Below the pieces are notes generated by a model. That model saw only the letters and a list, made by a program, of their open reading frames with translations, searched no databases and was not told where the DNA came from. Below are positions 5,016-59,380 of a DNA stretch of 64,000 nucleotides, piece by piece. Position 1 is the first letter of the stretch. Every line of letters begins with the position of its first letter. The stretch is from Patescibacteria group bacterium (GTDB lineage: Bacteria > Patescibacteriota > Patescibacteriia > SG8-24), in the NCBI GenBank assembly GCA_041667185.1, contig JBAYFM010000006.1, positions 6,591-70,590 on the forward strand, read 5' to 3'. Both the position numbers and the translations under genes were made by a program.

Positions 5016-7668
<2,653 letters not shown>

Positions 7669-17299: not shown

Positions 17300-17570
17300 C
17301 CCATTGCTTCACCGCTCCAAATACTCCAGCACTCTCAAACTCCCTGACTCCGTCTCTCCCTGACTCCAGTACTCCAGAACTCCAGCACTCTCCCAATTGT
17401 TAGTGACCTCGGTGTCAGACACCGAGGAGATGGAGAGTGCGGAAGTGGAGGAGTGGGGGAGACACGATAAAACTTCAGCCCTCCAGCACTCCCTGACTCC
17501 GTCTCTCCCGCACTCCCGCACTCCGCCACGTCGTTCGCGAACGACGTGGCTCCCGCACTCTCCCAAGTTG
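17300..17570. repeat. dispersed composite palindromic repeat element (longest copy, R3)
   Basis: Multiple ctccagcactc / gactccgtctctccctgactcc units, an internal hairpin cctcggtgtcagacaccgagg, and the core palindrome at 17528-17547. Confidence 0.75.
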
Positions 17571-17667
17571 ACAACCCGCGAGGGGTGGATTAAGGTCGGC
17601 AACAGCTCTTTTCGCGGCCTGACGACAGGTCGGGTTTCTGTAGGTCATTGAAAATCCAAAGGAGTCG

Positions 17668-18276
17668 ATGATGCGGCACGAGCTTGATTTGCATTCTGCG
17701 TTGATCGCGGGAGTGGTAATAGGGATACTTTGGCCGCTATTGACCTATGTCATCCTCGTGGGGACGAAGTTGATGTCGGAGCCGGAGACTGCCCGCCACG
17801 AAGCCGGCCACGTCGTCGCGCATTTCGTCGGTTTCGGCAAGGCGCCGTATCGCGTCGCTCTGACTACGTTCCAACTGAGCAACACGATGGGGCGCACGAC
17901 GAACTGCAGCGGCGACGACTGTCGCGGCAATATCAGCGTGGCCGAGCAGTGGCACACGCTTGTGCTGCTCTTAGCTGGCATGGCCGCCGCTTCGTCGCGC
18001 GATGGCGGCGACAACGACATCCGCACCTTCCGGGATGTTGTTTTAGTCCTCCTGGATGAACAGCAAAGCGGTCAGGATATCAGTCCGCCGTGGCCCAACG
18101 ATCTGTCCCTCCGACAGTTTGACTTCACGGACATCAGCGAAGAGGCGTGGCGTCGGACGACCGAAGTGGTCGCCCAGCATCGTCCTCAGATTGACGCCTT
18201 GGCCGAAGCGCTTCTGCGCCGCGGCAGCCTCGAGCACGAGGAGATCGAGGCTATCATCGACGCGACCGGCAAGTGA
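17668..18276 (+). CDS. stand-alone FtsH-like M41 peptidase-domain protein (TM anchor, no AAA module)
   Basis: TARHEAGHVVA (FtsH TAYHEAGHA), GGDNDI (FtsH GASNDI), and a C-terminal HRPQIDALAEALLRRGSLEHEEIEAII that matches the FtsH helical tail. Confidence 0.65.
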   Translation: MMRHELDLHSALIAGVVIGILWPLLTYVILVGTKLMSEPETARHEAGHVVAHFVGFGKAPYRVALTTFQLSNTMGRTTNCSGDDCRGNISVAEQWHTLVLLLAGMAAASSRDGGDNDIRTFRDVVLVLLDEQQSGQDISPPWPNDLSLRQFDFTDISEEAWRRTTEVVAQHRPQIDALAEALLRRGSLEHEEIEAIIDATGK

Positions 18277-28334: not shown

Positions 28335-28418
28335 AGTTGGGGAGTCAGGGAGAGGCGAAGCGGGGGAGATCGAGTCTCTCCCTGACCCCGTCTCTCCCTG
28401 ACTCCGTCTCTCGCATTT
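28335..28418. repeat. dispersed repeat element (copy R4)
   Basis: ggggagtcagggagag...ctctccctgaccccgtctctccctgactccgtctctc. Confidence 0.7.
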
Positions 28419-32091: not shown

Positions 32092-33828
32092 ATGGGTTCA
32101 ACTTCGCGAAGATCATTCGGCCTGATCATCCTGATCGCCAGTTTCGTTATCGCCGGTTTCGCAGTCGTGGTCCGGCCGGCTGTGGCGCAAACCGTCGAGG
32201 AGATCAGTTCGTTCGCGTCCGACATCGAGGTCCGGAGCGACGGGATCGTCGGGATCGTCGAGACTATCGAATATTATTTTCCCGACGAGCGCCACGGCAT
32301 CTATCGCGACATCGCGGAGGAATACGTCAACGACCGGGGCGAGCAATACCGCATTCCGATCACGGTCCTGAGCGTCCGCGATGAGCGCGGCAACGACTGG
32401 AACTATTCCCTCGAACGCGGCGGGAGCGGCTTGCGCGTCAAGATCGGCGATCCGAACCGGACCGTCACCGGCCGCCAGGTCTACGTCATCGCTTACGAGG
32501 CGACCGGTGCGCTCCGATATTTTGCGGACCATGACGAACTCTATTGGAACGCCACGGGGACCGAGTGGCAGGTCCCGATCCGCCGCGCCGCCGCGACCAT
32601 CAGGCTGCCCGAACCGATCGATCCGGCAACGATCACACTCAAGTGTTACACCGGCGGGCGCGGCTCGGCCGCCGAGAATTGCCAGAAGAGCGTCCAGGGC
32701 CGGCAGGCTGATTTTGCGGCGACCGGCGCGCTGACCGTGGTGGTCGGCTGGCCGCCGGGACTCATCGCGAAGGTCGAGGCAGCGGCGGCGCCGGCGGTGT
32801 CCTGGCCCGGCGTGCCGTGGCGCTGGATCCTGTCAGCGCTGCTCCCGTCGCTCGTCATCCCGTTGGGCGTCTTCATTTATCTGTTCGGACGCTGGCGGCG
32901 GTACGGCCGCGATCTCCAAGGCAGTCCGACGCTCGTGGTCCAATATGATCCGCCGGACAAACTGGGAGCGGCCGAGACCGGCGTCATCTACGACGCCACG
33001 GCCGACATCCGGGAGGTCTCGGCGGCCATCGTGGAACTGGCGGTCCGCGGTTTCCTGCTGATCCGCGAGGTCGAGACTCAGGGGCTGATCTTCAAGAGCC
33101 AGGATCACGAGCTCGTGAAGCTCGCGGCTCCGACTGGCGCCGCGCCGTTGGCCGAACATGAGAGCAAACTGCTCGCCGCGCTGTTCCCGGCCGGCGACAC
33201 GGTCCGGCTTTCCTACATCAAAGAGCACCATGCTTTCTCGGGCCAGCTGAAGGGCATCACCGATTCGATGTATGACCGGGTCACGACGCTCGGATATTTC
33301 GAACAGAATCCGGAGCGGGTGCGCGCCAAGTATTTCGGCGCCGGCGTGGCGTTCATGCTGGTCGGATTCTTCATTGCACCGCTCGCGATCGCGGCGGTCC
33401 TCGCCGGCATCATTTGTCTGGTCTTCGGCGCCATCATGCCCAAGCGCACGGCCCGGGGCGTCCAGGCGTTCGATCACGCCAAGGGTTTCCGGGAATATCT
33501 GGAGCACGCGGAAAAATATCGCCTGCAGTGGCAGGAGCGGGAAAATATCTTCGAGAAGTTCCTGCCTTACGCCATGGTCTTCGGGATCGTCGATAAATGG
33601 GCCAAGGCGTTCGAGGGACTCCAGTTGCAGCAGCCGTCCTGGTACGAGGGCCGGGCGTTCGGTTCCGGAGCCTTCAATGCCGTCATGTTCAGTTCGGCTT
33701 TCAACAGTTTCGGGACCGCGATGAATTCGGCTGTGCTCTCGACGCCGTCCCGGAGTTCGAGCGGCAGCGGTTTTTCGGGCGGCTTTTCCGGCGGCGGCGG
33801 AGGCGGTGGCGGCGGGGGATCGTGGTAG
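32092..33828 (+). CDS. DUF2207-family membrane protein
   Basis: Signal peptide or TM, a ~230-aa extracytoplasmic domain, a central TM, PTLVVQYDPP, C-terminal TMs and a poly-Gly tail (GGFSGGGGGGGGGG). Confidence 0.6.
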   Translation: MGSTSRRSFGLIILIASFVIAGFAVVVRPAVAQTVEEISSFASDIEVRSDGIVGIVETIEYYFPDERHGIYRDIAEEYVNDRGEQYRIPITVLSVRDERGNDWNYSLERGGSGLRVKIGDPNRTVTGRQVYVIAYEATGALRYFADHDELYWNATGTEWQVPIRRAAATIRLPEPIDPATITLKCYTGGRGSAAENCQKSVQGRQADFAATGALTVVVGWPPGLIAKVEAAAAPAVSWPGVPWRWILSALLPSLVIPLGVFIYLFGRWRRYGRDLQGSPTLVVQYDPPDKLGAAETGVIYDATADIREVSAAIVELAVRGFLLIREVETQGLIFKSQDHELVKLAAPTGAAPLAEHESKLLAALFPAGDTVRLSYIKEHHAFSGQLKGITDSMYDRVTTLGYFEQNPERVRAKYFGAGVAFMLVGFFIAPLAIAAVLAGIICLVFGAIMPKRTARGVQAFDHAKGFREYLEHAEKYRLQWQERENIFEKFLPYAMVFGIVDKWAKAFEGLQLQQPSWYEGRAFGSGAFNAVMFSSAFNSFGTAMNSAVLSTPSRSSSGSGFSGGFSGGGGGGGGGGSW

Positions 33829-33858
33829 GCCGTTTGATCTCATAACTCCTGAATTCCT

Positions 33859-34260
33859 ATGACCGACGCACAACTCAAGAAGATCTTCGCCATCAAGACC
33901 ATCGCCGCGGTCGGCTTGTCGTCGAACGCCGCGCGGCCGAGTTACGGCGTCTGCTCGTATCTGCAGGGCCGCGGTTATCGGATCATCCCGGTGAATCCCA
34001 ACGAGACCGAAGTTCTGGGGGAGAAAGCCTATCCGGACCTGGACGCCGTGCCGGGGCCGGTCGAGATCGTTCAGATCTTCCGCCGGCCGGAAGCCGTGCC
34101 GGAGATCGTCGAAGCCGCCATCCGCAAAGGCGCCCAGGTCGTTTGGATGCAGGACGGAGCCGGAAATCCGGACGCGGCGCGCCGCGCCGAAGCGGCTGGC
34201 CTGCTGGTCGTGGCGGATGATTGCATGTTGCGCCAGCACCGGAGGTTGTTCGGTGAGTAG
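33859..34260 (+). CDS. CoA-binding domain protein (YccU/YneT-like)
   Basis: 133 aa; IAAVGLSSNAARPSYGVCSYLQGRGYRIIPVNP Rossmann-like CoA-binding fold. Confidence 0.7.
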   Translation: MTDAQLKKIFAIKTIAAVGLSSNAARPSYGVCSYLQGRGYRIIPVNPNETEVLGEKAYPDLDAVPGPVEIVQIFRRPEAVPEIVEAAIRKGAQVVWMQDGAGNPDAARRAEAAGLLVVADDCMLRQHRRLFGE

Positions 34261-34261
34261 G

Positions 34262-34390
34262 GTAGCGGAGAGTGGGGGAGACGAAGTGTTGAAGTACTGG
34301 AGTACTGAAGTACGGAAGCTTAACCTCAAACCTCCAGCACTCCCGCACTTCAGCACTTCAGTACTCCTGCATTTCCTCACCCCCCCCATC
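34262..34390. repeat. dispersed repeat element (copy R5)
   Basis: ggagagtggggg...cctccagcactcccgcacttcagcacttcagtactcc, followed by the cassette terminator/leader. Confidence 0.65.
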
Positions 34391-34435
34391 TTCATCAAAA
34401 AACCGCCTCGTAGGCGGTTTTTTGACCATTATTCC

Positions 34436-34506
34436 AGTCTTTGTTAAGGTGCTTTCCGCAGCCGCTGGTTGCCGTGTTCTTTCACTAACATCATCGGAGG
34501 TAGAGA
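34436..34506 (+). promoter_or_regulatory. conserved cassette leader (TTGTTAAGGTG box + GC hairpin + GGAGGTAGAGA RBS), copy 1
   Basis: Near-identical to 35198-35264 and 36766-36841, and partially to 36000-36073. Confidence 0.5.
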
Positions 34507-34974
34507 ATGAATCCGAAGACGATCGTGGTCTCTCTTTTCGCCTTGTTTCTTTTGGCAGGGTGCGCCAAGTTTCGCTTCGATGTTCCGGACGGCTTCAAGA
34601 TCATCGAAGAGCAGAGGGATAATTTTGGCCAGGGCAAGTGGCAGCTCACGAACGAGGCGGGCAATAGCATGATTTTTGTCAACCTAATGTCAGCCGAGGT
34701 TTGGCCGCTGGATAAGCAAGTGGACGAGTACCTATCTCTCATCGCTGATCTGGATGGTGTGATCACCGAGAAAGTGATCACGGATTACAGAAGTTCCGCG
34801 AGGCTGGAGTTCACGTACGTCGCGCAACAGTCTCACAGGACTGGTCGGGTCTTCTTTCGTCAGTTGACTGAAAGAAATATGACCATCGTCGTTTTTGGTT
34901 GGTGGTTGGATTCCCAGGCTGCGACCGCCGGACCAGCCTTCGAAGCCGTCGCCGCTTCGGCCGACTATAAGTAA
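34507..34974 (+). CDS. paralogous small lipoprotein, cassette 1
   Basis: Lipobox LLAGC; 155 aa; C-terminal FEAVAASADYK shared with cassettes 2-4. Confidence 0.65.
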   Translation: MNPKTIVVSLFALFLLAGCAKFRFDVPDGFKIIEEQRDNFGQGKWQLTNEAGNSMIFVNLMSAEVWPLDKQVDEYLSLIADLDGVITEKVITDYRSSARLEFTYVAQQSHRTGRVFFRQLTERNMTIVVFGWWLDSQAATAGPAFEAVAASADYK

Positions 34975-35007
34975 CGGGTTCTTCATCAGCTCCGATTTTC
35001 TTCAGCT

Positions 35008-35038
35008 CGCCGCGCTCTCTCAAGGGCGCGGTTTTTTT
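35008..35038 (+). terminator. rho-independent terminator of cassette 1
   Basis: ccgcgctctctcaagggcgcgg plus T7. Homologous terminators follow cassettes 2-4. Confidence 0.6.
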
Positions 35039-35099
35039 CGCAACTATCAGAAAACCTCGGCGTCAGCCGAGGTTGAATAAAAGACGCGAATCCCCCGCA

Positions 35100-35150
35100 G
35101 TTTTAGCGGAGAGGGATCAGAACTCCCACACTCCCACACTCTCCGTCTTC
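35100..35150. repeat. dispersed repeat fragment (copy R6)
   Basis: agcggagagggatcagaactcccacactcccacactctccgtcttc. Confidence 0.5.
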
Positions 35151-35264
35151 ATCAAAAAACCGCCCCGTAGGCGGTTTTTTGACCATTACTTCAGCCTTTG
35201 TTAAGGTGCTTCCCGCAGCTGCAAGCTGCCGCGTTCTTTCATCAATATCATCTGGAGGTGGGGA

Positions 35265-35741
35265 ATGAATTTGAAAACGATCATCGTATCCGTATTCGCG
35301 CTGTGTCTTTTTGCAGGCTGCGCCGCTCCGCAGGCGCATCTGATCGTGCCGGACGGCTGGCAGGCCACCTCGATACACGATCTCGAGTCCGGCTTCAGCC
35401 AGACGTTGGCAAACGAGGGTGAGCAGGCCTACATCTTCGTCAAAATAGCCCCGGATAAAACTTATCCGCGCGTTAAGGAACAGCTGGACTCGGATCTCCG
35501 TTACATCAAAAGTGTTGGCGGCAAGCTGATCGAGTCCCTGGTTGTTGCCGATCAGAGCTTCGCGCGGCTGGCCTTCACGATCGAATTGGCAGATGGCACT
35601 CTGGGCATCGGCAGGATCATCTTGCGCAAGTCGACCAAGGGCAAGCGGACGGTTGCTGTCAGGGGTGTTTGGCCGCTGGATAAGGATGCGGTCATCAGGC
35701 CGGACTTCGAAGCCATTGCCGCTTCAGTCGACTACAAGTAG
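35265..35741 (+). CDS. paralogous small lipoprotein, cassette 2
   Basis: Lipobox LFAGC; 158 aa; C-terminal FEAIAASVDYK. Confidence 0.65.
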   Translation: MNLKTIIVSVFALCLFAGCAAPQAHLIVPDGWQATSIHDLESGFSQTLANEGEQAYIFVKIAPDKTYPRVKEQLDSDLRYIKSVGGKLIESLVVADQSFARLAFTIELADGTLGIGRIILRKSTKGKRTVAVRGVWPLDKDAVIRPDFEAIAASVDYK

Positions 35742-35799
35742 CAGGTTCGCCACCAGCTCCGATTCTCTTCAGTTCACCGCGCTCTCTCATGAGCGCGGT

Positions 35800-35990
35800 T
35801 TTTTTCGCCATTTTGAGGTGAAGAGACGGAGTCAGGGAGAGACGGAGTTGGGGAGATACGAAGATACGGAGTCACGTCGTTCGCGAACGACGTGACGGAG
35901 CCATATCGCTCACAAGCGACGCGACTCCGTCTCTCTGTTACTTCCTGACTCCGTCTCTCCCGCACTCCTGCACTCCCATACTTTCCACTA
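35800..35990. repeat. dispersed composite palindromic repeat element (copy R7)
   Basis: gagacggagtcagggagagacggag ... core palindrome 35874-35893 ... gactccgtctct ... cctgactccgtctctcc. Confidence 0.75.
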
Positions 35991-36073
35991 TTTCGGCCGC
36001 GTGTTAAGGTGGCGGCAGTCGATCGGATGTTCGTCGCACCTTTTTAACAACGCCGCTTCAGAGGAGGTTCAGG

Positions 36074-36568
36074 ATGAAGATCTCGCTGCTAGCGATCCTG
36101 GGTCTGGCCCAGTTGTTTTCTGCTGTCGATTGTTCGCCAGCCGGCGAGCCGAGACTCTGGTCCGAGTCGCCTCAGGGCTGGAAAGTCACGGCCGAACTGG
36201 TCCGCAGCGGTCGGGCGATGTTGGTCCTGAATCCGGAAAAGGCCGGTCTCGAGGCCGGATTCGGCGTGATCTGCGCGCCGGCCGGCAAGATGCCGCCTGA
36301 AGTCAGGTTCCGGTCGCTGGCGAGACAGGCCCGGGAAATGGCCGGCGCCGTGGACATCGAGGCGTACGACGCGGCCAAAAAGTTCTTTGTCCTGTCTTAC
36401 GCCTACGAGTCGGTTTCCGGCGAGGCTTACGTCGCTCGCGTCACCGTGAAGACGGATTCCTCAGGACTCGGCCAGACTCTGGTCATCTCCGGTTATTGGC
36501 CGGAGGCGGTCGATCCGGACCTGGCCCGCGTTTACGCCGACTTCGTCGCCTCGATCGATTTCAAATGA
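36074..36568 (+). CDS. paralogous small secreted protein or lipoprotein, cassette 3 (most diverged)
   Basis: Signal peptide with AVDCS; 164 aa; C-terminal ADFVASIDFK. Confidence 0.55.
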   Translation: MKISLLAILGLAQLFSAVDCSPAGEPRLWSESPQGWKVTAELVRSGRAMLVLNPEKAGLEAGFGVICAPAGKMPPEVRFRSLARQAREMAGAVDIEAYDAAKKFFVLSYAYESVSGEAYVARVTVKTDSSGLGQTLVISGYWPEAVDPDLARVYADFVASIDFK

Positions 36569-36614
36569 GTCCGTTCTGACCTGCTCCCGCGTCTCCTAGA
36601 GGCGCGGTTTTTTT

Positions 36615-36760
36615 CACCACTTTGAGGTGAAGAGACAGAGTCAGGGAGTGATGGAGAGACGGAGAGATGTCGCTCGCGAACGACACGGCCTCGTCTCTCC
36701 CTGACTCCGTCTCTCCTGCACTCCAGTACTCCCGCACTCTCCACCCACCCATCGTTTTGA
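36615..36760. repeat. dispersed repeat element with a degenerate core (copy R8)
   Basis: gagacagagtcagggag...ATGTCGCTCGCGAACGACAC...ctctccctgactccgtctctcctgcactccagtactcc. Confidence 0.7.
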
Positions 36761-36841
36761 CCATTCCCCCGGCCTTTGTTAAGGTGCTCTCCGCAGCCGC
36801 GGGCTGCAGTGTCCTTTCACCCAGATCATCGGAGGTAGAGA

Positions 36842-37312
36842 ATGAGCCTGAAAACGATCGTCGCGTCCGTCTTCGCGCTGTTCCTGTTGGCGGGGTGTGC
36901 GCCCAAGTTCCAAGTCACCGTGCCTGAAGGCTGGAAAGTGGCTAAGGAATTGAACGAAGAGGGCGTGCAAGCGAAACTCCTTGTCAACGCAAAGGAGGAT
37001 ATCGCGATCAAGGTCTTCTGCGTGCCGGCCGAACAAGTGCCGGTCGAGGAAGCTCTGAAGTCGACGGTCGACCTTGTGAACCAGGCTCAGGGCCAGATCG
37101 TCGAACAGGACCTCGCCGCTGACAAGAGCTCGTCCCGGGTCGTTTTTACGGTTACGGTTGATGGCACTGATCTTGCCGGCCGTCAGGTGTTCAAGCTGAG
37201 CAGCTATAAGCACGCCAAGGCGTTGCTTATCTCCAGTGTTTGGTTGGCCGCGCAAGATGCCGAGGCTGCCAAGGCTTTTGAGATCATCGCCGCTTCAGCT
37301 GACTTCAAGTAG
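36842..37312 (+). CDS. paralogous small lipoprotein, cassette 4
   Basis: Lipobox LLAGC; 156 aa; C-terminal FEIIAASADFK. Confidence 0.65.
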   Translation: MSLKTIVASVFALFLLAGCAPKFQVTVPEGWKVAKELNEEGVQAKLLVNAKEDIAIKVFCVPAEQVPVEEALKSTVDLVNQAQGQIVEQDLAADKSSSRVVFTVTVDGTDLAGRQVFKLSSYKHAKALLISSVWLAAQDAEAAKAFEIIAASADFK

Positions 37313-37494
37313 CCGCCCAGCGTCAGTTTCGTTTCCGATTCTCTCAGTTTGCCGCGTCTCGTCAGACGCGGTCTTTTTTATCCATTTATCCACAAAAGGT
37401 GTCAGGTACTTTTGGGGTGCCAAAGGTACCAGGTACCTTTTGCCCGGAAATCGGCGGTGCGGTACACTAGCCGGGCATTCATTAATATTTCGTT

Positions 37495-37944
37495 GTGACC
37501 ATGGATGAACTCGCCCGACAACTGGATCGTCCCGGGGACAACGCGCATTGTCCCGGCGTTTTCGTGCTGCGTGGCGGCCAAGTGCTCGTCGGTCTGCGGC
37601 ACTATGCCAAGCACGGCATCGCCGCGACCGATCTCTGGACCATCCCCGGCGGCCGCTGCGAAACCGGGGAGACCATCGGCCAGGCGGTCCGGCGCGAAGC
37701 GGCCGAGGAAGCCGGCCTGACCGAACTCGAGCTCACCGACTGGTTGGCCGAGATACCCGGCGCCCGGGCCGGCGACATCGTCCCGCTCTTCATCGGCCGT
37801 TCGTCCCAGCCGCCGCGCCTCATGGAGCCGGAGAAGTTCGCCGAGTGGCGCTGGTGCGATCCCGCCGCCGTGCCGCGGCCGTTCATCAATCCCGAAGCCC
37901 TGATCCTGCTCCAGGCGTGGGTCCGGTCGCATCCCCAAAACTGA
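37495..37944 (+). CDS. Nudix hydrolase
   Basis: Nudix box GGRCETGETIGQAVRREAAEEAGL. Confidence 0.8.
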   Translation: MTMDELARQLDRPGDNAHCPGVFVLRGGQVLVGLRHYAKHGIAATDLWTIPGGRCETGETIGQAVRREAAEEAGLTELELTDWLAEIPGARAGDIVPLFIGRSSQPPRLMEPEKFAEWRWCDPAAVPRPFINPEALILLQAWVRSHPQN

Positions 37945-37949
37945 CCGTT

Positions 37950-40079
37950 ATGCCGCACATCGATTTCGAAAAGGAACTGAACGCTGAACAGCTCGCGGTC
38001 GTGAAGAACGCCGACGGGCCGTGTTTGGTCTTGGCCGGCGCCGGCTCCGGCAAGACGCGGACCATCGTCTATCGCGTGGCCTATCTCGTGGAGCACGGCG
38101 TGGATCCGTCGAGCATCCTCCTGCTCACTTTCACCAACAAGGCCGCCAACGAGATGATGACCCGCATCGGCGAACTCCTCGGGCTCGCGGGCGACGCGCG
38201 GCCGGTCGGTCTCTGGGGCGGCACGTTCCATTCGGTCGCGAACCGGCTGCTCCGCATCTACGGCCGCCAGATCGGCTACGGCCAGAATTTCACCATCCTC
38301 GACGAAGAGGACGCTAAGGCGCTCATCAAGGCTTGTATCAAGGAGCTGAACCTCGACGCCGCCGGCCGCCGTTTTCTGTCGCCGGCCGGGGTCAAGGAGA
38401 TCCTGAGCTACGCGCGCAACTCGACCAAAGGCCTGGAGAAAGCGGTCGAACGGCACGATGCGCGGCTCGTTTCGGACCTCTCCAAGTTCACGGACATCGC
38501 CGCGCTCTACGAAAAGAAGAAACGCGCCGCGAACGCTATGGACTTCGACGACCTGCTCATCCGGCTCTACGAACTTTTGAAACAGGAACCGCGCCTGGCC
38601 GAACTTTTGTCCCAGCAGTTCCGTTACATCCTCGTCGATGAGTATCAGGACACGAATGCGCTCCAGGTGGCGTTCATCAAAGAGCTCGCGGGGCCGAAAC
38701 ACAATCTGCTTGTCGTCGGCGACGACGCCCAGAGCATCTATTCTTTCCGCGCGGCCGACGTGCGGAACATCCTGGATTTCCCGCAGCAGTTCCCGGACGC
38801 CAAGGTCTTCCGGCTGCAGACGAATTACCGCTCGACGCCGGAGATCCTCAGCCTCGCGAACGACATCATCGCCAAGAACGTCAATCAGTTCCCGAAAGAA
38901 TTGACGAGCGTGTCGAAAGGCCTGGAGAAACCAGCGGTCGTGCCGGCAGTCTCCGCTTCGAAGGAGGCGCAGTTCGTGTTCAATAAGATCGAACAACTGC
39001 TCGAATCCGGCGTGCCGGCGCGTGAGATCGCCGTGCTCTTCCGCGCCACGCACCATTCGCAGATGCTGGAGTTCGAACTCATGAAAGCCGCTCTGCCTTA
39101 CGACTACCGCGGCGGCCTGAAATTCTTCGACCGCGCGCACGTGAAGGACACGCTGGCGTTCCTGCGTCTCACGGTCAATTTCAGCGACGAGGCCGCCTGG
39201 CTCAGGGTGCTGGGACTTCAGGAGGGCATCGGCGATGTCTCGGCTGGCAAGATCTTCGAGGCTCTGCGCGCCGCCGGCAGTCTCGCCAAGTCCATTCTCG
39301 CGCCCATCGAGCAGCAGTTCGGCAATCGCGTGGCCCGCGGCTGGAAGGATCTGCGCGACATCCTGGAGGCGCTGCACGCGGCGGGCGGCAAGCCGGCCGA
39401 CCTCATCAAGGCTGTGACGACCTCGACCTACATCGATTATCTTGAAGCCGAATATCCGAATTACCGCGAGCGGCTGGAGGATCTGGACCAGCTCGCCGTG
39501 TTCAGCCGGAATTACGAGAAGGTCGAGGATTTTCTCGCGGACGTCACCTTGGACGACGGCGTCTTCGGCGGCGCGCGCGAACTCAAAGCCGGCGGCGGCC
39601 GGCGCGCCCCGTCGCGCGGCGACCGCATTGTGCTGTCGACCATCCATCAGGCCAAGGGGCTCGAATGGGACGCGGTGTTCATCATCCACCTGAACGACCA
39701 GTCGTTCCCGAACCGCAAGGCCGCGGCTGAACAGGGTGGTCTCGAAGAAGAGCGGCGCTTGTTCTACGTCGCCGTGACGCGGGCGCGCAAGTGGCTGTTC
39801 CTGAGTTATCCCGCGGCTATGGGCGGGCGCGAGGGCGGTTTCGATTACGCGCCGCCGTCGCTGTTCCTCGAAGAGATCGACGTTGCTTGCCTGAAGGACG
39901 GCGCCTGTCTCGCGGGCCGTCGCACCGGCAGCCGCTCGGGTGGCGACGATTGGTCCGATCCGGGATTCGACGATGAGTCGGTCGAAGTTGATCAGACGGG
40001 GGAACTGAAGGAAGTGGGGGAGCGGATGAAGAGCGTGAATGACGACTGGAAGAAAAAAAGCTTTTTAAGGGATGTTTGA
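37950..40079 (+). CDS. ATP-dependent DNA helicase, UvrD/PcrA/Rep family
   Basis: Walker A AGAGSGKTRT, motifs Ia/II (VDEYQDTN), VGDDAQSIYSFRAA, TIHQAKGLEWD. The start was trimmed to MPHIDFEKEL. Confidence 0.88.
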   Translation: MPHIDFEKELNAEQLAVVKNADGPCLVLAGAGSGKTRTIVYRVAYLVEHGVDPSSILLLTFTNKAANEMMTRIGELLGLAGDARPVGLWGGTFHSVANRLLRIYGRQIGYGQNFTILDEEDAKALIKACIKELNLDAAGRRFLSPAGVKEILSYARNSTKGLEKAVERHDARLVSDLSKFTDIAALYEKKKRAANAMDFDDLLIRLYELLKQEPRLAELLSQQFRYILVDEYQDTNALQVAFIKELAGPKHNLLVVGDDAQSIYSFRAADVRNILDFPQQFPDAKVFRLQTNYRSTPEILSLANDIIAKNVNQFPKELTSVSKGLEKPAVVPAVSASKEAQFVFNKIEQLLESGVPAREIAVLFRATHHSQMLEFELMKAALPYDYRGGLKFFDRAHVKDTLAFLRLTVNFSDEAAWLRVLGLQEGIGDVSAGKIFEALRAAGSLAKSILAPIEQQFGNRVARGWKDLRDILEALHAAGGKPADLIKAVTTSTYIDYLEAEYPNYRERLEDLDQLAVFSRNYEKVEDFLADVTLDDGVFGGARELKAGGGRRAPSRGDRIVLSTIHQAKGLEWDAVFIIHLNDQSFPNRKAAAEQGGLEEERRLFYVAVTRARKWLFLSYPAAMGGREGGFDYAPPSLFLEEIDVACLKDGACLAGRRTGSRSGGDDWSDPGFDDESVEVDQTGELKEVGERMKSVNDDWKKKSFLRDV

Positions 40080-40245: not shown

Positions 40246-40274
40246 TTGACAATTAGCCCGAAATCGGGTATTTT
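40246..40274 (+). promoter_or_regulatory. candidate sigma70-like promoter TTGACA-N17-TATTTT
   Basis: Consensus -35 with 17-bp spacing, ~30 nt upstream of the 40304 ATG. Confidence 0.4.
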
Positions 40275-40303
40275 AAGCTGTTCTTTAACAAAGGGGGACT
40301 ACA

Positions 40304-40750
40304 ATGTCTGCATACGCTGGTGTGTTCTTTGGCGCGTTCATCATCTTTTTGCTCGGTGTCATCGTCAACACAGTGGTCAAATCCGTCGGGAAACAGGGGG
40401 ATGACGCGACGATCTCCAGAGTCCTGGTCTGCTGCATGTTCCTTCTGGGCATCATGGTCGCGACCACGTCTCTCGCGGTCAACAGATTCGGCCAGGCCCG
40501 GTTCAGCCACATGCTCGAGGTCGGCCAGGTCCAGGAGGTGCTCGGCGCCTTCACGCTCGAAGACGGCCGTTCTTTCGCCCTGTTGCGCGATCAGAGCGCC
40601 GGCACTGATGTCGTGTACTACGAGCTCGCTCAGCCTCTGCCCGCCGCCGCGAAATGCGTGATCTTCACGCATGAAAGAGAAAAGACTTTCCAGGATCCGA
40701 CCGGCGGCAGAGCTCTCGCGACCGTCGTCGATTGTCCCGCCAAGCAGTAG
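40304..40750 (+). CDS. hypothetical membrane protein
   Basis: Two N-terminal TM helices then a ~80-aa soluble tail. Confidence 0.5.
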   Translation: MSAYAGVFFGAFIIFLLGVIVNTVVKSVGKQGDDATISRVLVCCMFLLGIMVATTSLAVNRFGQARFSHMLEVGQVQEVLGAFTLEDGRSFALLRDQSAGTDVVYYELAQPLPAAAKCVIFTHEREKTFQDPTGGRALATVVDCPAKQ

Positions 40751-45239: not shown

Positions 45240-45345
45240 TTTTTTAGAAGTGACGGAGTCAGGAAGTGTAGGAGAGACGGAGTCGTTGAGAGATTCTCCC
45301 GAACTCCGTCTCTCCCTGACTTCGTCTCTCACAAAAAACCCCGCA
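45240..45345. repeat. dispersed repeat element (copy R10)
   Basis: gacggagtcaggaagtgtaggagagacggagtc...gaactccgtctctccctgacttcgtctctc: inverted arms. Confidence 0.7.
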
Positions 45346-49639: not shown

Positions 49640-49770
49640 TTCGTTGGGCTGTCTTTTTTTTGTGGATGTGGAGAGTGGGGTGGGAGTGCTGGAGTGCTGG
49701 AGTGCTGGAGTGCTGGAGTGCTGGAGTGCTCTCATACTCCGTCTCTCCCACACTTCCAAACTCCCACACC
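49640..49770. repeat. dispersed repeat element (copy R11) containing a (GGAGTGCT)5 octanucleotide microsatellite
   Basis: gtggagagtggggtgggagtgctggagtgctggagtgctggagtgctggagtgctctcatactccgtctctccc. Confidence 0.75.
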
Positions 49771-49799
49771 TTGACTTTATGGCCATTTTGAGCTAATCT
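49771..49799 (+). promoter_or_regulatory. candidate promoter TTGACT-N17-TAATCT for the 49877 gene
   Basis: Good hexamers with 17-bp spacing immediately 3' of the repeat element. Confidence 0.4.
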
Positions 49800-49876
49800 T
49801 GCTGGTCCGATTTGCGGGCTTCGTACCTTGAACATTCATCGAGCTCAGCTCCTCTCATCAGACTGGAGGTCCGATC

Positions 49877-50539
49877 ATGACCATCATCAGTGCCAGCGCG
49901 GTCGCTATCATCGCTTTTTTGAGCGGCATCCTGTTCCAGAATTCGCGCGCTTTTCGTCAGCGGCTCCGATGCACCAAGGCCAGATTGACGGAGTCCGGAG
50001 CGCAGATCGCCAAGACTCGCCTGCAGTTGGCGTCCGCTGGTCGCGCCCATAATCCGAACGGCCTGATCGCCTGGGCGAGGCAGCATGCCGCGCAACTGCT
50101 CGATCAGAACGAAGGGACCCGTCTCGCTGCTCTGGGGCTCGCCGACAAAGATCGGGACGGCCTGGGCCACGCCGAGGACATGGAACGCGAGGTCTGGCAC
50201 GGCATCTGCGCCGCGCGCAGCATCATGGAGTGCACGGAACGCTATCTGTCCAAGCAGATCTGTCTCGACAATCAGAAGATGAACGGATTTTTGGACGATA
50301 TCGAAGGGTTGCGCCGTCGGCTGGGCGCGCGTCTCGATCGATCGACGGCCGGTCCGAGTATCTACGAGGAGCAGATCCGCCTCGTCCGGCTGGGCGCGCG
50401 CATCGTCGCAGAGCGGGAGACTTTCAAGAGCGATCCGGCCGTCGGCTGGAACCGCATTCAGTCACTGCTCCGCGCCCTCGTTGATGTCGACCAGAGTCTG
50501 GAGTCGAAGCTCGGCGCTTTCAACCTGAACGACCGCTGA
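49877..50539 (+). CDS. hypothetical membrane-anchored protein
   Basis: 220 aa; N-terminal TM; helical region. Confidence 0.45.
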   Translation: MTIISASAVAIIAFLSGILFQNSRAFRQRLRCTKARLTESGAQIAKTRLQLASAGRAHNPNGLIAWARQHAAQLLDQNEGTRLAALGLADKDRDGLGHAEDMEREVWHGICAARSIMECTERYLSKQICLDNQKMNGFLDDIEGLRRRLGARLDRSTAGPSIYEEQIRLVRLGARIVAERETFKSDPAVGWNRIQSLLRALVDVDQSLESKLGAFNLNDR

Positions 50540-58647: not shown

Positions 58648-58777
58648 ACTTAAATAAGTATAGCATAAACGTTCTTTTCAGCCGGTGCGGGCGGCGGCGC
58701 GGTCCAGTTGACAAGCTTGGTCCGTTATTACAAGCTGGACCCAAAGTTCTTTCACTAAGATCAAGGACAGGAGGTCG

Positions 58778-59380
58778 TTGATGAAGACCGGCAAGCCAGT
58801 GTTGCGGATCATTTTGATCGTCGTTTCTGTTTTGGCCGCGATAGTGATCCTGTCGGCGCTCGCCAGACTAGCGCTCAGGATGAACGGCGAGGCCGACCCG
58901 AACGTCGGTCAGATCCGGATCCTTGGTTCCGTCGTCACGATCGAGCATGTGCTCACGGTCAGGCTGCCGGAGCCGGCTGAACAATGGGAGGCGGTGACGG
59001 GCGCGCGGCTCGACGACTATTCTCCGCGTCCCGTGTTAGCGCTTTTTCACCAAGAGCCGGCGGCCCGGGTGCTTCTGCAGCTGTGGCCGGCCGAGGGGGT
59101 GACGCCGGAAAACATCTCTACAGAGCTGGCGAAACAGCTCACGGATCAGGGGTTCGAGGTCGCCGCTTTTTGCGGTATCGGGCCATCCGGCCGGCGCTGC
59201 TCTTTGGTCTTCGAGTCCATCAGCCAGGAATCCGCGCCACGCGGCAAGATCTGGATCGAGTACTTGCCGGGTGATCCGCAGATGTTGCTGATCATAATCA
59301 GTACTTACGCACCGACTGATTATGAACAGTTCGAACCACAGATCGATTATTTGGCCGATCATGTCCGGTCGGACGATTGA
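58778..59380 (+). CDS. hypothetical membrane-anchored protein
   Basis: N-terminal TM (VLRIILIVVSVLAAIVILSALA); 200 aa. Confidence 0.45.
   Translation: MMKTGKPVLRIILIVVSVLAAIVILSALARLALRMNGEADPNVGQIRILGSVVTIEHVLTVRLPEPAEQWEAVTGARLDDYSPRPVLALFHQEPAARVLLQLWPAEGVTPENISTELAKQLTDQGFEVAAFCGIGPSGRRCSLVFESISQESAPRGKIWIEYLPGDPQMLLIIISTYAPTDYEQFEPQIDYLADHVRSDD

Follow-up and report, generated by a model that had tools for sequence, protein, structure and literature searches.

Tandem lipoprotein genes of a Patescibacteria genome are probably separate sigma-70-type units with a 5'-terminal stem-loop and partly gene-converted leaders

Four tandem paralogous lipoprotein genes lie within the window, the whole 64 kb stretch of DNA that was analysed. 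They are probably separate sigma-70-type transcription units whose mRNAs begin with a stem-loop and whose leaders have been converted in part among the paralogues. We propose that each gene is its own unit under a housekeeping promoter composed of TTGACC, a 17 bp spacer ending in TGT and the -10 hexamer TAAGGT, and that transcription would start 7-8 nt downstream of the -10, either on the first G of a GC-rich stem or one base before it. The hairpin would then fold in vivo as a 5'-terminal mRNA stem-loop with 0-1 unpaired bases, and most likely would guard the transcript against 5'-end-dependent decay by RppH and RNase E, or by RNase J. In the proposed leader the hairpin would be followed within 1-6 nt by a GTTCYTT motif, then by a G-poor spacer, GGAGGT and ATG. 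The elements of the four cassettes are listed below; the genes and their leaders are called W1 to W4 in the window, and further family leaders are given L numbers.

34397-34423, + strand: terminator-like hairpin AAAAAACCGCCTCGTAGGCGGTTTTTT, read from sequence, whose T-run enters the -35 of cassette 1
34422-34427, + strand: -35 TTGACC of cassette 1, 17 bp upstream of TAAGGT
34442-34451, + strand: box/extended -10 of cassette 1 (TG 34442-34443, TAAGGT 34445-34450)
34458-34472, + strand: hairpin GCAGCC-GCT-GGTTGC of cassette 1, 6 pairs, one of them G.U
34476-34482, + strand: GTTCTTT of cassette 1, 3 nt after the hairpin, resembling the boxA core
34496-34509, + strand: SD GGAGGT (34496-34501) and ATG (34507) of cassette 1, invariant columns
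34507-34974, + strand: lipoprotein gene W1, 155 aa, LAGC lipobox; intrinsic terminator at 35009-35032
35154-35180, + strand: the same terminator-like element before cassette 2; W1 and W2 are 97% identical here
35179-35184, + strand: -35 TTGACC of cassette 2
35199-35208, + strand: box/extended -10 of cassette 2 (TAAGGT 35202-35207)
35215-35229, + strand: hairpin GCAGCT-GCA-AGCTGC of cassette 2, loop-closing pair U-A versus C-G in the other copies
35233-35239, + strand: GTTCTTT of cassette 2
35254-35741, + strand: SD GGAGGT (35254-35259) and gene W2 (35265-35741), 158 aa; terminator at 35776-35799
35982-35987, + strand: weak -35-like TTTCCA of cassette 3, 17 bp before TAAGGT; the orthologous L003b has TTGACC
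36002-36011, + strand: box/extended -10 of cassette 3 (TAAGGT 36005-36010)
36018-36039, + strand: weak, uncertain stem of cassette 3, -3.8 kcal/mol, with 24% of shuffles folding as well
36036-36052, + strand: pyrimidine/boxA-like motif in its cassette 3 form, GCACCTTTTTAACAAC
36063-36568, + strand: SD GGAGGT (36063-36068) and gene W3 (36074-36568), 164 aa; terminator at 36587-36607
36757-36762, + strand: -35 TTGACC of cassette 4
36777-36786, + strand: box/extended -10 of cassette 4 (TAAGGT 36780-36785)
36793-36807, + strand: hairpin GCAGCC-GCG-GGCTGC of cassette 4
36811-36817, + strand: GTCCTTT of cassette 4, one mismatch
36831-37312, + strand: SD GGAGGT (36831-36836) and gene W4 (36842-37312), 156 aa; terminator at 37351-37372

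The preliminary description placed an invariant TGTTAAGGTG box before all four genes, and this was confirmed in four out of four, including the divergent W3. Exactly four copies were found in the window (34442, 35199, 36002 and 36777, all on the + strand), each 56-63 nt upstream of the ATG of one of the lipoprotein genes; a fifth site carries one mismatch (expected 0.75), and five matches were reached in 0 of 100 shuffles. Parsed as TG-T-TAAGGT, the box corresponds to an extended -10 in which T-12, A-11 and T-7 are retained. TTGACC, with 5/6 matches to TTGACA, is located 17 bp upstream of TAAGGT in W1, W2, W4, L001, L003a, L003b, L028 and L130; L006 has TTGACG, also at 17 bp, and W3 has TTTCCA (4/6). 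The leaders as originally delimited begin within the spacer of the promoter and leave the -35 elements at 34422-34427, 35179-35184 and 36757-36762 outside. The 17 bp spacing is constant in every leader while the spacer sequence diverges, as in L006 (cttaacagccgccg) and its orthologue L130 (tccggacaaggtca). Across nine aligned leaders the only invariant blocks are TGTTAAGGT, the TT of the pyrimidine motif, GGAGGT and ATG. In most leaders, including L003b, L006 and L130, an upstream terminator ends in a T-run that merges into the -35, so that read-through transcription of the box is unlikely. A pairing of the box with a downstream CTTTAACA-like sequence as an RNA helix, prompted by W3 and some unrelated loci, was rejected for the family: the box precedes the predicted start and sits behind a terminator, and no more than 4-5 weak pairs could form.

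TAAGGT scores 3/6 against TATAAT, and for this reason a generic promoter scan missed the family promoter; promoters were located by anchored searches instead. The hexamer occurs at only 11 sites on both strands of the window, and 6 of the 11 have a -35 at 17 bp. Two of these six are perfect TTGACA-N17-TAAGGT promoters outside the lipoprotein family, at 17591 (+) and 47644 (-), which precede unrelated genes (17668 and 47556 (-), respectively); by our own arithmetic this would arise by chance with a probability of about 1e-5. The family promoters combine an imperfect -35 with TG, and the two perfect TTGACA promoters are without TG; offsetting a weaker -35 by the TG of an extended -10 is a classic compensation. 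The same arrangement reaches beyond this genome. A metagenome scan with the pattern TTGAC-N15-TGTTAAGGT-N30-60-GGAGGT returned 90 distinct leaders, mostly unrelated, in which the free sixth base of the -35 was A in 53 cases and a start codon followed the SD in 76; one site was located 13 nt upstream of a tRNA-Ala gene. Judged by its sequence, the invariant box is the extended -10 of an ordinary sigma-70-type promoter, one per lipoprotein gene, and TAAGGT appears to be the preferred -10 hexamer of this Patescibacteria MAG. It shares with known extended -10 sigma-70/sigma-A promoters the TTGACA-like -35, the spacing of 17 bp, a TG one base before TAnnnT, and the tolerance of a poor or missing -35 in the presence of TG (W3); it differs from them in its -10 hexamer, TAAGGT.

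The box had previously been considered unlike a sigma70 -35/-10 pair and tentatively linked to a regulator of its own or to an alternative sigma factor. Such a factor would account for the invariance of the box across 11 leaders, even at positions where a -10 normally tolerates change, and for the distance of TAAGGT from TATAAT. However, a consensus housekeeping -35 at 17 bp, the TG, the use of TAAGGT with perfect TTGACA at unrelated genes, the like arrangement at about 90 unrelated metagenome loci and the replacement of the final G of the box by C in L006 and L130 all oppose it, and we regard it as highly unlikely. The earlier reading would imply a new regulon or an alternative sigma factor, whereas the evidence describes a textbook promoter and leader, which are therefore not for follow-up as the site of a novel regulator. 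What emerges is a concrete promoter model that can be put to the test in a Patescibacteria lineage not yet in culture: TTGACA, 17 bp, (TGn)TAAGGT.

Transcription usually starts 7-8 nt downstream of the -10, which would put the start of cassette 1 at about 34457-34458. Across the leaders the stem begins 6-8 nt after the -10, at the predicted +1, so the predicted start coincides with the first base of the stem and is not downstream of the hairpin. The GC hairpin reported downstream of the box was recovered in three leaders (W1, W2 and W4). The stem drawn for the first of them (cagc-c-gctg) cannot form, as it would close on a 1-nt loop; the homologous register is GCAGCC-GCT-GGTTGC. The first 26 nt of the predicted cassette 1 transcript fold with -7.6 kcal/mol compared to -2.4 for shuffles, 1% of which are equal. 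Over nine leaders the first 26 nt gave a summed folding energy of -71.9 against -26.5 ± 6.4 for shuffles, and seven of the nine beat UTR shuffles (fraction 0.016 or less). The weak stems of W3 and L003b were equalled by 24% and 22% of shuffles, respectively. Folding energies of whole leaders were no better than those of shuffles (z from -0.9 to +1.4), indicating that the leader is neither a riboswitch nor a compact structured RNA. Searched against Rfam 15 at the gathering threshold, the whole window gave no match, and at an E-value threshold the region 33000-38500 gave only sub-threshold miRNA-like matches to long inverted repeats and terminators; a search of the 64 kb window for tRNA genes was negative.

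A single homologous hairpin accounts for six of the strong ones, and other leaders form different stems at the same position: besides GCAGCC/GGCTGC we found GGCCCG paired with CGGGTC in L006 and with CGGGCC in L130, CCCG/CGGG in L003b and CGC-TTTC-GCG in the orthologue L005a. Five stem pairs depart from Watson-Crick pairing, and read on the sense strand each of them is G.U, never A.C. The varied stems, together with the sense-strand G.U pairs, favour an RNA structure over an operator. Among the three window copies, the compensatory changes claimed for the stem come down to one two-sided change (the loop-closing C-G to U-A, in W2), the other being only G-C to G.U. Stem positions are paired in 75.9% of cells compared to 66.6% after shuffling (18 of 500 shuffles reach the observed value), and the covariation score is 0.315 against 0.179 (24 of 500), computed on a tiny protein family with about 11 leaders in all. 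This covariation is weak and within reach of unstructured related sequences. The proposal of an RNA hairpin in the 5'UTR is thus supported in part, by the position of the stem at the predicted +1, the varied stems and the sense-strand G.U pairs, and limited by the weak formal covariation.

A 5' structure can stabilise an mRNA by denying RppH and RNase E the single-stranded 5' end that they need; the B. subtilis RppH requires at least 2 unpaired nt (PMC3997798). Stabilising 5'-terminal stem-loops are known from E. coli ompA and papA and from the B. subtilis aprE leader (PMC3997798). The lipoprotein leaders resemble them in the short GC stem at the predicted 5' end, in belonging to an abundant-envelope-protein mRNA and in the strong SD that follows, and differ in the weak stems of W3 and L003b and in a 5' end that is here only predicted.

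Two other functions of the hairpin were weighed against mRNA protection. The palindromic operator suggested in the preliminary description (GCAGC-N-GCTGC) is disfavoured. As GCAGC-N5-GCTGC over the transcription start it would bind a dimeric repressor that co-regulates the cassettes; its half-sites are indeed near-constant around a variable centre (GCT, GCA, GCG or GTG) in W1, W2, W4, L001, L003a and L028, and +1 to +15 is a typical position for a repressor. But GCAGC/GCTGC is missing from W3, L003b, L005a, L006 and L130, which retain promoter, motif and SD and carry other stems instead, the symmetry is lost by C-to-T changes that are neutral only as RNA G.U pairs (GGTTGC in W1; GCTGT in L001, L003a and L028), and the window has no copies beyond the cassettes, all of which makes an operator very improbable. 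In the subset W1, W2 and W4 the GCAGC..GCTGC palindrome might still have a role at the DNA level. The hairpin and the U-rich GUUCUUU might also form a leader attenuator, either a weak intrinsic terminator or a pause site, and a consensus scan calls three leader hairpins terminator-like, with 6 pairs followed by CGTGTTCTTT. Yet the tail CGUGUUCUUU has a single U in its first 4 nt and a U-run broken by G and C, whereas the true cassette terminators are stems of 9-10 pairs directly followed by 6-7 T; in L003b the motif is 6 nt away from the stem, and no alternative antiterminator structure was predicted by folding. Attenuation is, on these grounds, highly unlikely, and the reading as a 5'-terminal protective stem-loop is preferred.

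The pyrimidine motif recalls boxA, whose consensus is GYTCTTTAANA (PMC5725501). It begins 1-6 nt after the stem in all family leaders (6 nt in L003b) and persists in all relatives, with flanks that vary. W1, W2, L028, L003b and L005a match GYTCTTT, and W4, L001, L003a and L006 have one mismatch in this core; the AANA half is missing from the family leaders, none of which carries the full consensus GYTCTTTAANA. In the window GYWCYTT was found within 70 nt after 8 of 13 promoter-like sites (background 0.036, p = 3e-9), which indicates that GTTCYTT is, as far as the sequence can tell, a genome-wide leader signal and not the mark of a cassette regulon. Position 3 is A in five of the window instances (GTACYTT or GCACYTT), and a perfect 11/11 boxA consensus, GTTCTTTAACA, is located at 40280, between TTGACA-N17-TATTTT and the SD of the gene at 40304. 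Genome-wide, coding regions included, 32 GTTCYTT were found compared to 12 expected. Seven other Patescibacteria loci contain 20 further promoter-like sites, none of them with the motif, which is thus not universal in the phylum. A genome scan for box plus GTTCYTT returned 16 matches (about 14 expected by our own estimate), among them 7 Patescibacteria and 1 family member.

These observations raise the possibility of an antiterminator of the rrn type, with a boxB-like stem and then boxA, used on many mRNAs: NusB/S10 would bind GUUCUUU on the nascent leader and modify RNA polymerase, leading either to antitermination or, in the manner of E. coli suhB, to repression of translation. Such a signal could coexist with the proposed promoter and contests only what the hairpin and motif do. 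GTTCTTT agrees with the consensus over its first 7 positions (PMC5725501), and NusB-NusE recognition covers just 8 nt of BoxA (PMC3177189). The order of rrn signals is boxB, boxA, boxC (PMC10250234), and in all family leaders a stem likewise precedes the motif, at a distance of 1-6 nt. The presence of the motif after 8 of 13 window promoter-like sites, including the perfect GTTCTTTAACA, and its retention in all relatives despite changing flanks point the same way, as does a base order that is not optimised for SD pairing and fits recognition by a protein. Against this stand the absent AANA, the core mismatch in W4, L001, L003a and L006, the A at position 3, the enrichment in coding regions, the 0 of 20 sites in the seven other loci, and the nature of the motif-bearing genes, which encode small unannotated proteins and not translation proteins. 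Pfam searches with ten other genes with motif-bearing leaders gave nothing informative, only weak matches below the cut-off. No NusB homologue was found in the 64 kb window with an approximate E. coli NusB query, and the loci analysed contained no rRNA 5' end. Compared with the rrn boxB-boxA-boxC signals and the mRNA boxA site at suhB (Baniulyte et al. 2017, PMC5725501), the leaders share a stem-loop directly followed by GYUCUUU in a 5'UTR near the SD, and differ by a 7-nt core without a matching AANA, by the lack of a recognised boxC and by the presence of the motif on many unrelated mRNAs, not rRNA or Nus genes. We consider such an antiterminator unlikely, if the most serious of these alternatives. 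The wider proposal, also doubtful and more speculative, is that boxA-like GYUCYUU, often preceded by a stem, would be a general mRNA-leader signal in this Patescibacteria lineage through which NusB-S10 loads onto most independently transcribed mRNAs as well as rRNA, the lipoprotein leader being a boxB-boxA module spread by gene conversion. If Nus binding is true, control by the genome-wide boxA-like motif would reach ordinary mRNAs in a reduced genome. The motif might instead mask GGAGG in cis as an anti-SD, forming an RNA thermometer or translational switch. RNAalifold pairs CYUUC with GGAGG in nine of nine leaders, and W1 and W3 pair in this way when folded singly; however, no covariation is seen because the SD is invariant, the summed motif-SD duplex energy (-74.7) is close to that of shuffles (-67.6 ± 7.2, with 17% as good), for W1 and W4 about 90% of the shuffled motifs pair better than the real one, and the conserved G-T-T prefix is left unexplained, so that sequestration seems very unlikely.

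Three of the leaders (W1, W2 and W4) had been described as about 85% identical. Over the 92 nt before the ATG we measured 83% for W1-W2, 82% for W1-W4 and 76% for W2-W4, and the W3 leader is only 55-57% identical to the others, with the box kept. The shared ribosome-binding site is narrower than described: GGAGGTAGAGA occurs only in W1 and W4, W2 has GGAGGTGGGGA and W3 GGAGGTTCAGG, and GGAGGT is the invariant part. The mature coding parts of the window copies have 31-33% amino acid identity and about 30-55% nucleotide identity. W4 and its orthologue L003a share 71% of the mature protein and 68% of the leader, compared to 31-35% of the protein and 76-84% of the leader for W4 and its paralogues W1, W2 and L001; over the first 60 coding nt W4-L001 reach 85% and W4-L003a 60%. 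Leader similarity is thus higher among paralogues (76-85%) than to the true orthologue (68%), which points to gene conversion and indicates that the likeness of leaders within the genome stems in part from this process and not solely from selection on a regulatory site. We propose that a 5' module comprising promoter, leader and signal peptide has been converted among the paralogues, and likewise a 3' module comprising C-terminus and terminator. As in the concerted evolution of tandem surface-protein paralogues, 5' and 3' modules are homogenised around cores of 31-35% identity; unlike in such systems, recombination machinery, silent cassettes and phase-variation signals were not seen, and all four copies have complete expression signals. 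The lipoprotein family counts 8 sequences among 5.8 billion searched, and Pfam has no family for the four lipoproteins. The W4 protein adopts a PsbP/DcrB-like fold in a structure model. The locus exemplifies concerted evolution of expression and export modules in a small, fast-diverging family of PsbP/DcrB-like surface lipoproteins.

Four lipoprotein genes lie in tandem on the same strand between 34.4 and 37.4 kb of the window, each forming a cassette with its own promoter, leader and canonical intrinsic terminator:

34507-34974, lipoprotein gene W1
35265-35741, lipoprotein gene W2
36074-36568, lipoprotein gene W3
36842-37312, lipoprotein gene W4

Their products (155-164 aa, annotated by NCBI as hypothetical in a Patescibacteria group MAG under locus tags WCT10_03015 to WCT10_03030) carry a signal peptide with a lipobox (LAGC, FAGC). 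Conservation is seen at the C-terminus (AASADYK/AASADFK); the mature parts are just 18-37% identical, and the coding cores share 30-55% of their nucleotides, which is near saturation. The same organisation, with conserved ends flanking a highly diverged core, was seen throughout the family (the window, L001, L003, L006, L028 and L130). Pfam contained no family for the W1-W4 proteins. A structure model based on 8 sequences of the family (pLDDT 90) displayed the PsbP/Mog1/DcrB/LpqN fold of envelope lipoproteins, with a Foldseek E of about 1e-5. This is a tiny family: 8 clusters in 5.8 billion proteins. Outside the window it comprises a fifth paralogue elsewhere in this MAG, on a different contig (L001/L002), a syntenic array in a related organism, flanked by the same CoA-binding and NUDIX genes (L003/L004), the fragmentary loci L005 and L006, and two loci added by pattern scans (L028 and L130). 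L130 (CAYPMU010000056.1, 2589-2649, minus strand) clearly belongs to the family and shares its promoter and leader; it lies on a 6.8 kb contig of GC 0.65 from a MAG labelled 'uncultured Gammaproteobacteria'; either this contig is mis-binned or the cassette is present outside Patescibacteria.

The preliminary description had pointed out an invariant box, TGTTAAGGTG, before every cassette. There are exactly four copies in the 64 kb, one per gene, against 0.75 expected (one-mismatch sites included); the observed number was matched by no shuffle. The reported likeness of the leaders was also recovered, with W1, W2 and W4 76-83% identical over 92 nt, and the W3 leader keeps the box though it is only 55-57% identical to the others. 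The box had been judged unlike a sigma-70 -35/-10 pair, from coordinates that began within the spacer and omitted TTGACC at 34422, 35179 and 36757. When this hexamer is included, the leaders read TTGACC, 17 bp ending in TGT, then TAAGGT: the -35 matches at 5 of 6 positions, the spacing is optimal, the TG of an extended -10 is present and TAAGGT keeps T-12, A-11 and T-7. Judged on this architecture, the box is very probably the -10 element of a sigma-70-type promoter. The 17 bp spacing is exact in 11/11 leaders from at least three organisms and the spacer sequence drifts; between L006 and its orthologue L130 most spacer positions differ, and TTGAC, TGTTAAGGT, the stem, the pyrimidine motif that follows it and the Shine-Dalgarno sequence (SD, GGAGGT) are kept. 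W3 combines a poor -35 (TTTCCA; TTGACC in its orthologue L003b) with a retained TG-n-TAAGGT, which matches the known behaviour of extended -10 promoters.

TAAGGT itself is rare, with 11 sites on both strands of the window, six of which have a -35 at exactly 17 bp. A perfect TTGACA-N17-TAAGGT, without TG, precedes two unrelated genes (17668, and 47556 on the minus strand), a coincidence whose probability we estimate at about 1e-5, indicating that TAAGGT is a common -10 hexamer of this genome and not specific to the cassettes. Further window promoters display the same architecture with different TAnnnT hexamers. The T-run of a terminator-type hairpin runs into the -35 in most leaders (34397-34423, 35154-35180, and also in L003b, L006 and L130), so that transcription of the box from upstream is unlikely, and the remaining ~100 nt of each leader leave room for no other promoter. 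A scan of 241 million metagenome records with the pattern TTGAC-N15-TGTTAAGGT-N30-60-GGAGGT yielded 108 stretches, corresponding to 90 distinct leaders nearly all unrelated to the lipoprotein family. The -35 position left open in the pattern, its sixth, was the consensus A in 53 of them, and a start codon followed the SD in 76. At one of the sites, on an unrelated metagenome contig (L010, 9122-9210, minus strand), TTGACC-N14-TGTTAAGGT lies 13 nt 5' of a tRNA-Ala gene. Taken together, these features mark the layout as one commonly used as a promoter. The promoter spacing, the TG motif and the reuse of TAAGGT thus leave the proposed dedicated regulator or alternative sigma factor unsupported. 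The original observation is real and its meaning ordinary: each lipoprotein gene has an extended -10 promoter, a short 5'UTR, a probable stem-loop and a strong SD. The ribosome-binding sequence GGAGGTAGAGA, described as common to the cassettes, was found in W1 and W4 only. An unrelated 291 kb metagenome contig (L052, 4007-4094 and 4331-4414) also carries two AT-rich leaders in tandem, 320 bp apart, that share the -10 of the cassettes.

Leader identity groups by genome and not by orthology. W4 and its orthologue L003a share 71% of the mature protein and 68% of the leader, compared to 76-84% of the leader and merely 31-35% of the protein for W4 and the paralogues W1, W2 and L001. The first 60 coding nt are 85% identical between W4 and L001 versus 60% between W4 and L003a, and W1, W2 and L001 share 83-87% of the 70 nt 3' of their stop codons. 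Such a pattern, read from these alignments, is the signature of gene conversion acting on a putative 5' module (promoter, leader, signal peptide) and a putative 3' module (C-terminus, terminator). With gene conversion, conservation within the genome carries less weight, and so do the compensatory changes seen between the window copies. Between organisms selection is still evident: what survives there is limited to the -35, TGTTAAGGT, stem and motif, GGAGGT and the ATG.

The transcription start is predicted 7-8 nt 3' of TAAGGT. The discriminator of W1, W2, W4 and L001 consists of pyrimidines only (GCTYYCC), the stem-opening G being the first purine; a transcript would then start with 5'-(C)GCAGCC. 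Over their first 26 nt, the predicted transcripts out-fold dinucleotide shuffles of their own UTR in 7 of 9 leaders (fraction at most 0.016), six of these seven carrying one homologous hairpin, and the summed folding energy of the nine is -71.9 versus -26.5 ± 6.4 kcal/mol in shuffles. In W3 the stem is weak. Different stems occupy the same place in other leaders, providing independent support for the hairpin:

L006: GGCCCG-AATAAG-CGGGTC
L130: GGCCCG-AATGAG-CGGGCC
L003b: CCCG-ATT-CGGG
L005a, orthologue of L003b, leader truncated by the contig end: CGC-TTTC-GCG

The hairpins noticed earlier are real, except that the first leader's stem had been drawn with a 1-nt loop, its homologous register being GCAGCC-GCT-GGTTGC, and that the compensatory changes reduce to a single two-sided change among the window copies. 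Within the GCAGC-type stems, G-C became G.U at two positions, the loop-closing C-G became U-A in W2, and one pair is broken (C.C, L003a). Read on the sense strand, each of the five wobble pairs is G.U and no A.C occurs, which favours a coding-strand RNA over a DNA palindrome; the palindromic operator envisaged initially is further disfavoured because GCAGC/GCTGC is absent from five leaders that otherwise keep all elements. An attenuator is disfavoured as well, since the tail 3' of the leader stem is CGUGUUCUUU whereas the true terminators of the cassettes have 6-7 T directly after stems of 9-10 pairs. Formal statistical support for the stem is weak: pairing reached 75.9% of cells versus 66.6% in shuffles (18/500 as high) and at most 49% in slid registers; the covariation score was 0.315 versus 0.179 (24/500), values that, by the calibration of the covariation test, related unstructured sequences can reach. 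These data fit, without proving, a conserved 5'-terminal stem-loop, and an RNA 5' stem-loop function for the hairpin is in our view somewhat probable. The best-known role of a 5' stem is to shield mRNA against 5'-end-dependent decay, because RppH and RNase E require single-stranded 5' ends (at least 2 unpaired nt for B. subtilis RppH), as exemplified by ompA, papA and aprE (PMC3997798). By analogy, a stabilising role may be tentatively suggested for the leader hairpin. The gene directly 3' of the array (37495-37944) is a NUDIX hydrolase, syntenic in L003/L004, the call being based on Pfam NUDIX assigned to the orthologues there. NUDIX is the superfamily of RppH; with respect to the stem-loop its location beside the array is probably a coincidence.

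All family leaders carry GTTCYTT 1-6 nt 3' of the stem, with the variants GTCCTTT in W4 and GCACCTTTTTAACAAC in W3. RNAalifold pairs CYUUC with the SD, as would an anti-SD or thermometer element, but the SD is invariant and hence offers no covariation, the summed motif-SD duplex energy (-74.7 versus -67.6 ± 7.2 for shuffled motifs) is equalled by 17% of shuffles, and W1 and W4 pair with the SD worse than ~90% of their own shuffles. Absent covariation and unremarkable energies lead us not to favour this role. The motif also matches positions 1-7 of the boxA consensus GYTCTTTAANA (PMC5725501), NusB-NusE recognises just 8 nt of BoxA (PMC3177189) and, in rRNA leaders, a boxB stem lies 5' of boxA (PMC10250234). 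Against a boxA-like element bound by Nus factors, the AANA half is missing from the family leaders and the core is mismatched in several copies; the 7-mer is enriched genome-wide, coding sequence included (32 versus 12 expected), the strict motif only twofold in intergenic DNA (p = 0.012), and the motif was absent from all 20 further promoter-like sites scanned in seven additional Patescibacteria loci. We rate Nus binding as unlikely. A cassette-like leader, preceded by a terminator, was observed before an unrelated gene in a Candidatus Magasanikiibacteriota MAG (L123, 383-444): TTGACA-N17 (TGT) TAAGGT, the 7-pair stem CTAGCCT-TG-AGGCTAG, 3 nt, GTTCTTTC and GGGAGGT-ACC-ATG.

The motif is not cassette-specific, as it also accompanies promoters outside the family: GYWCYTT lies within 70 nt 3' of 8/13 TTGACN-N16-18-TAnnnT window sites (background 0.036, p = 3e-9). 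The genes concerned encode mostly small, unannotated or membrane proteins, and the motif often runs on into RACAAC; non-family instances are, among others:

40246-40306, perfect consensus match GTTCTTTAACAA / GTTCTTTAACA, flanked by TTGACA-N17-TATTTT and the SD of gene 40304
18779, minus strand, GTTCCTTGGCAAC
17568-17668, GCTCTTT, gene 17668
47667-47556, minus strand, GTACTTTGACAAC
41640-41568, minus strand, GTACCTTACAACAAC
49771-49877, GTACCTTGAACA
975, 213 and 7668 (minus strand), 58746-58778 and 48951, motif after less canonical promoters

GTTCTTT(A/G)A(C/T/A)AA was present in 14/90 of the unrelated leaders found by the promoter pattern alone, versus 0.7 in shuffles, and Patescibacteria accounted for 7/16 matches in a genome scan for the box plus GTTCYTT. 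This genome-wide boxA-like leader motif is the sole lead that we judge worth following. The minus-strand leaders at 213 and 975, near the window edge, are nearly identical (TTGACC-N17-TAAGAA, then GTTCTTTCGACAACC, then GGAGGCTCTGATG), one preceding a 172-aa and the other a 71-aa ORF, and so represent a local duplication.

Long imperfect inverted repeats separate cassette terminators from the next promoter (34286-34380, 35815-35976, 36631-36731) and recur at about 1181-1217, 17346-17507, 28384-28412, 45248-45330 and 49735-49747. Purine-rich units, GAGACGGAGTCAGGGAG and GGAGTACTGGAG among them, make up these repeats (arms of 33-63 nt, 72-79% complementary); the window has 22 copies of the unit GACTCCGTCTCTC versus 3 expected, spread over several intergenic regions and frequently lying immediately 5' of promoters. 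These repeats, whose miRNA-like Rfam matches are all sub-threshold, look like a dispersed REP- or MITE-like family. Just 3' of the array, a conserved promoter-like site TTGCCC-N17-TACACT (window about 37395-37470, L003 about 6040-6085, L005 about 2160-2210) precedes a 107-aa gene located before NUDIX in L003 and L005. On the 5' side of the window copy lie an inverted repeat, CAAAGGTACC...GGTACCTTTTG, and AGGTAC repeats, which may be an operator.
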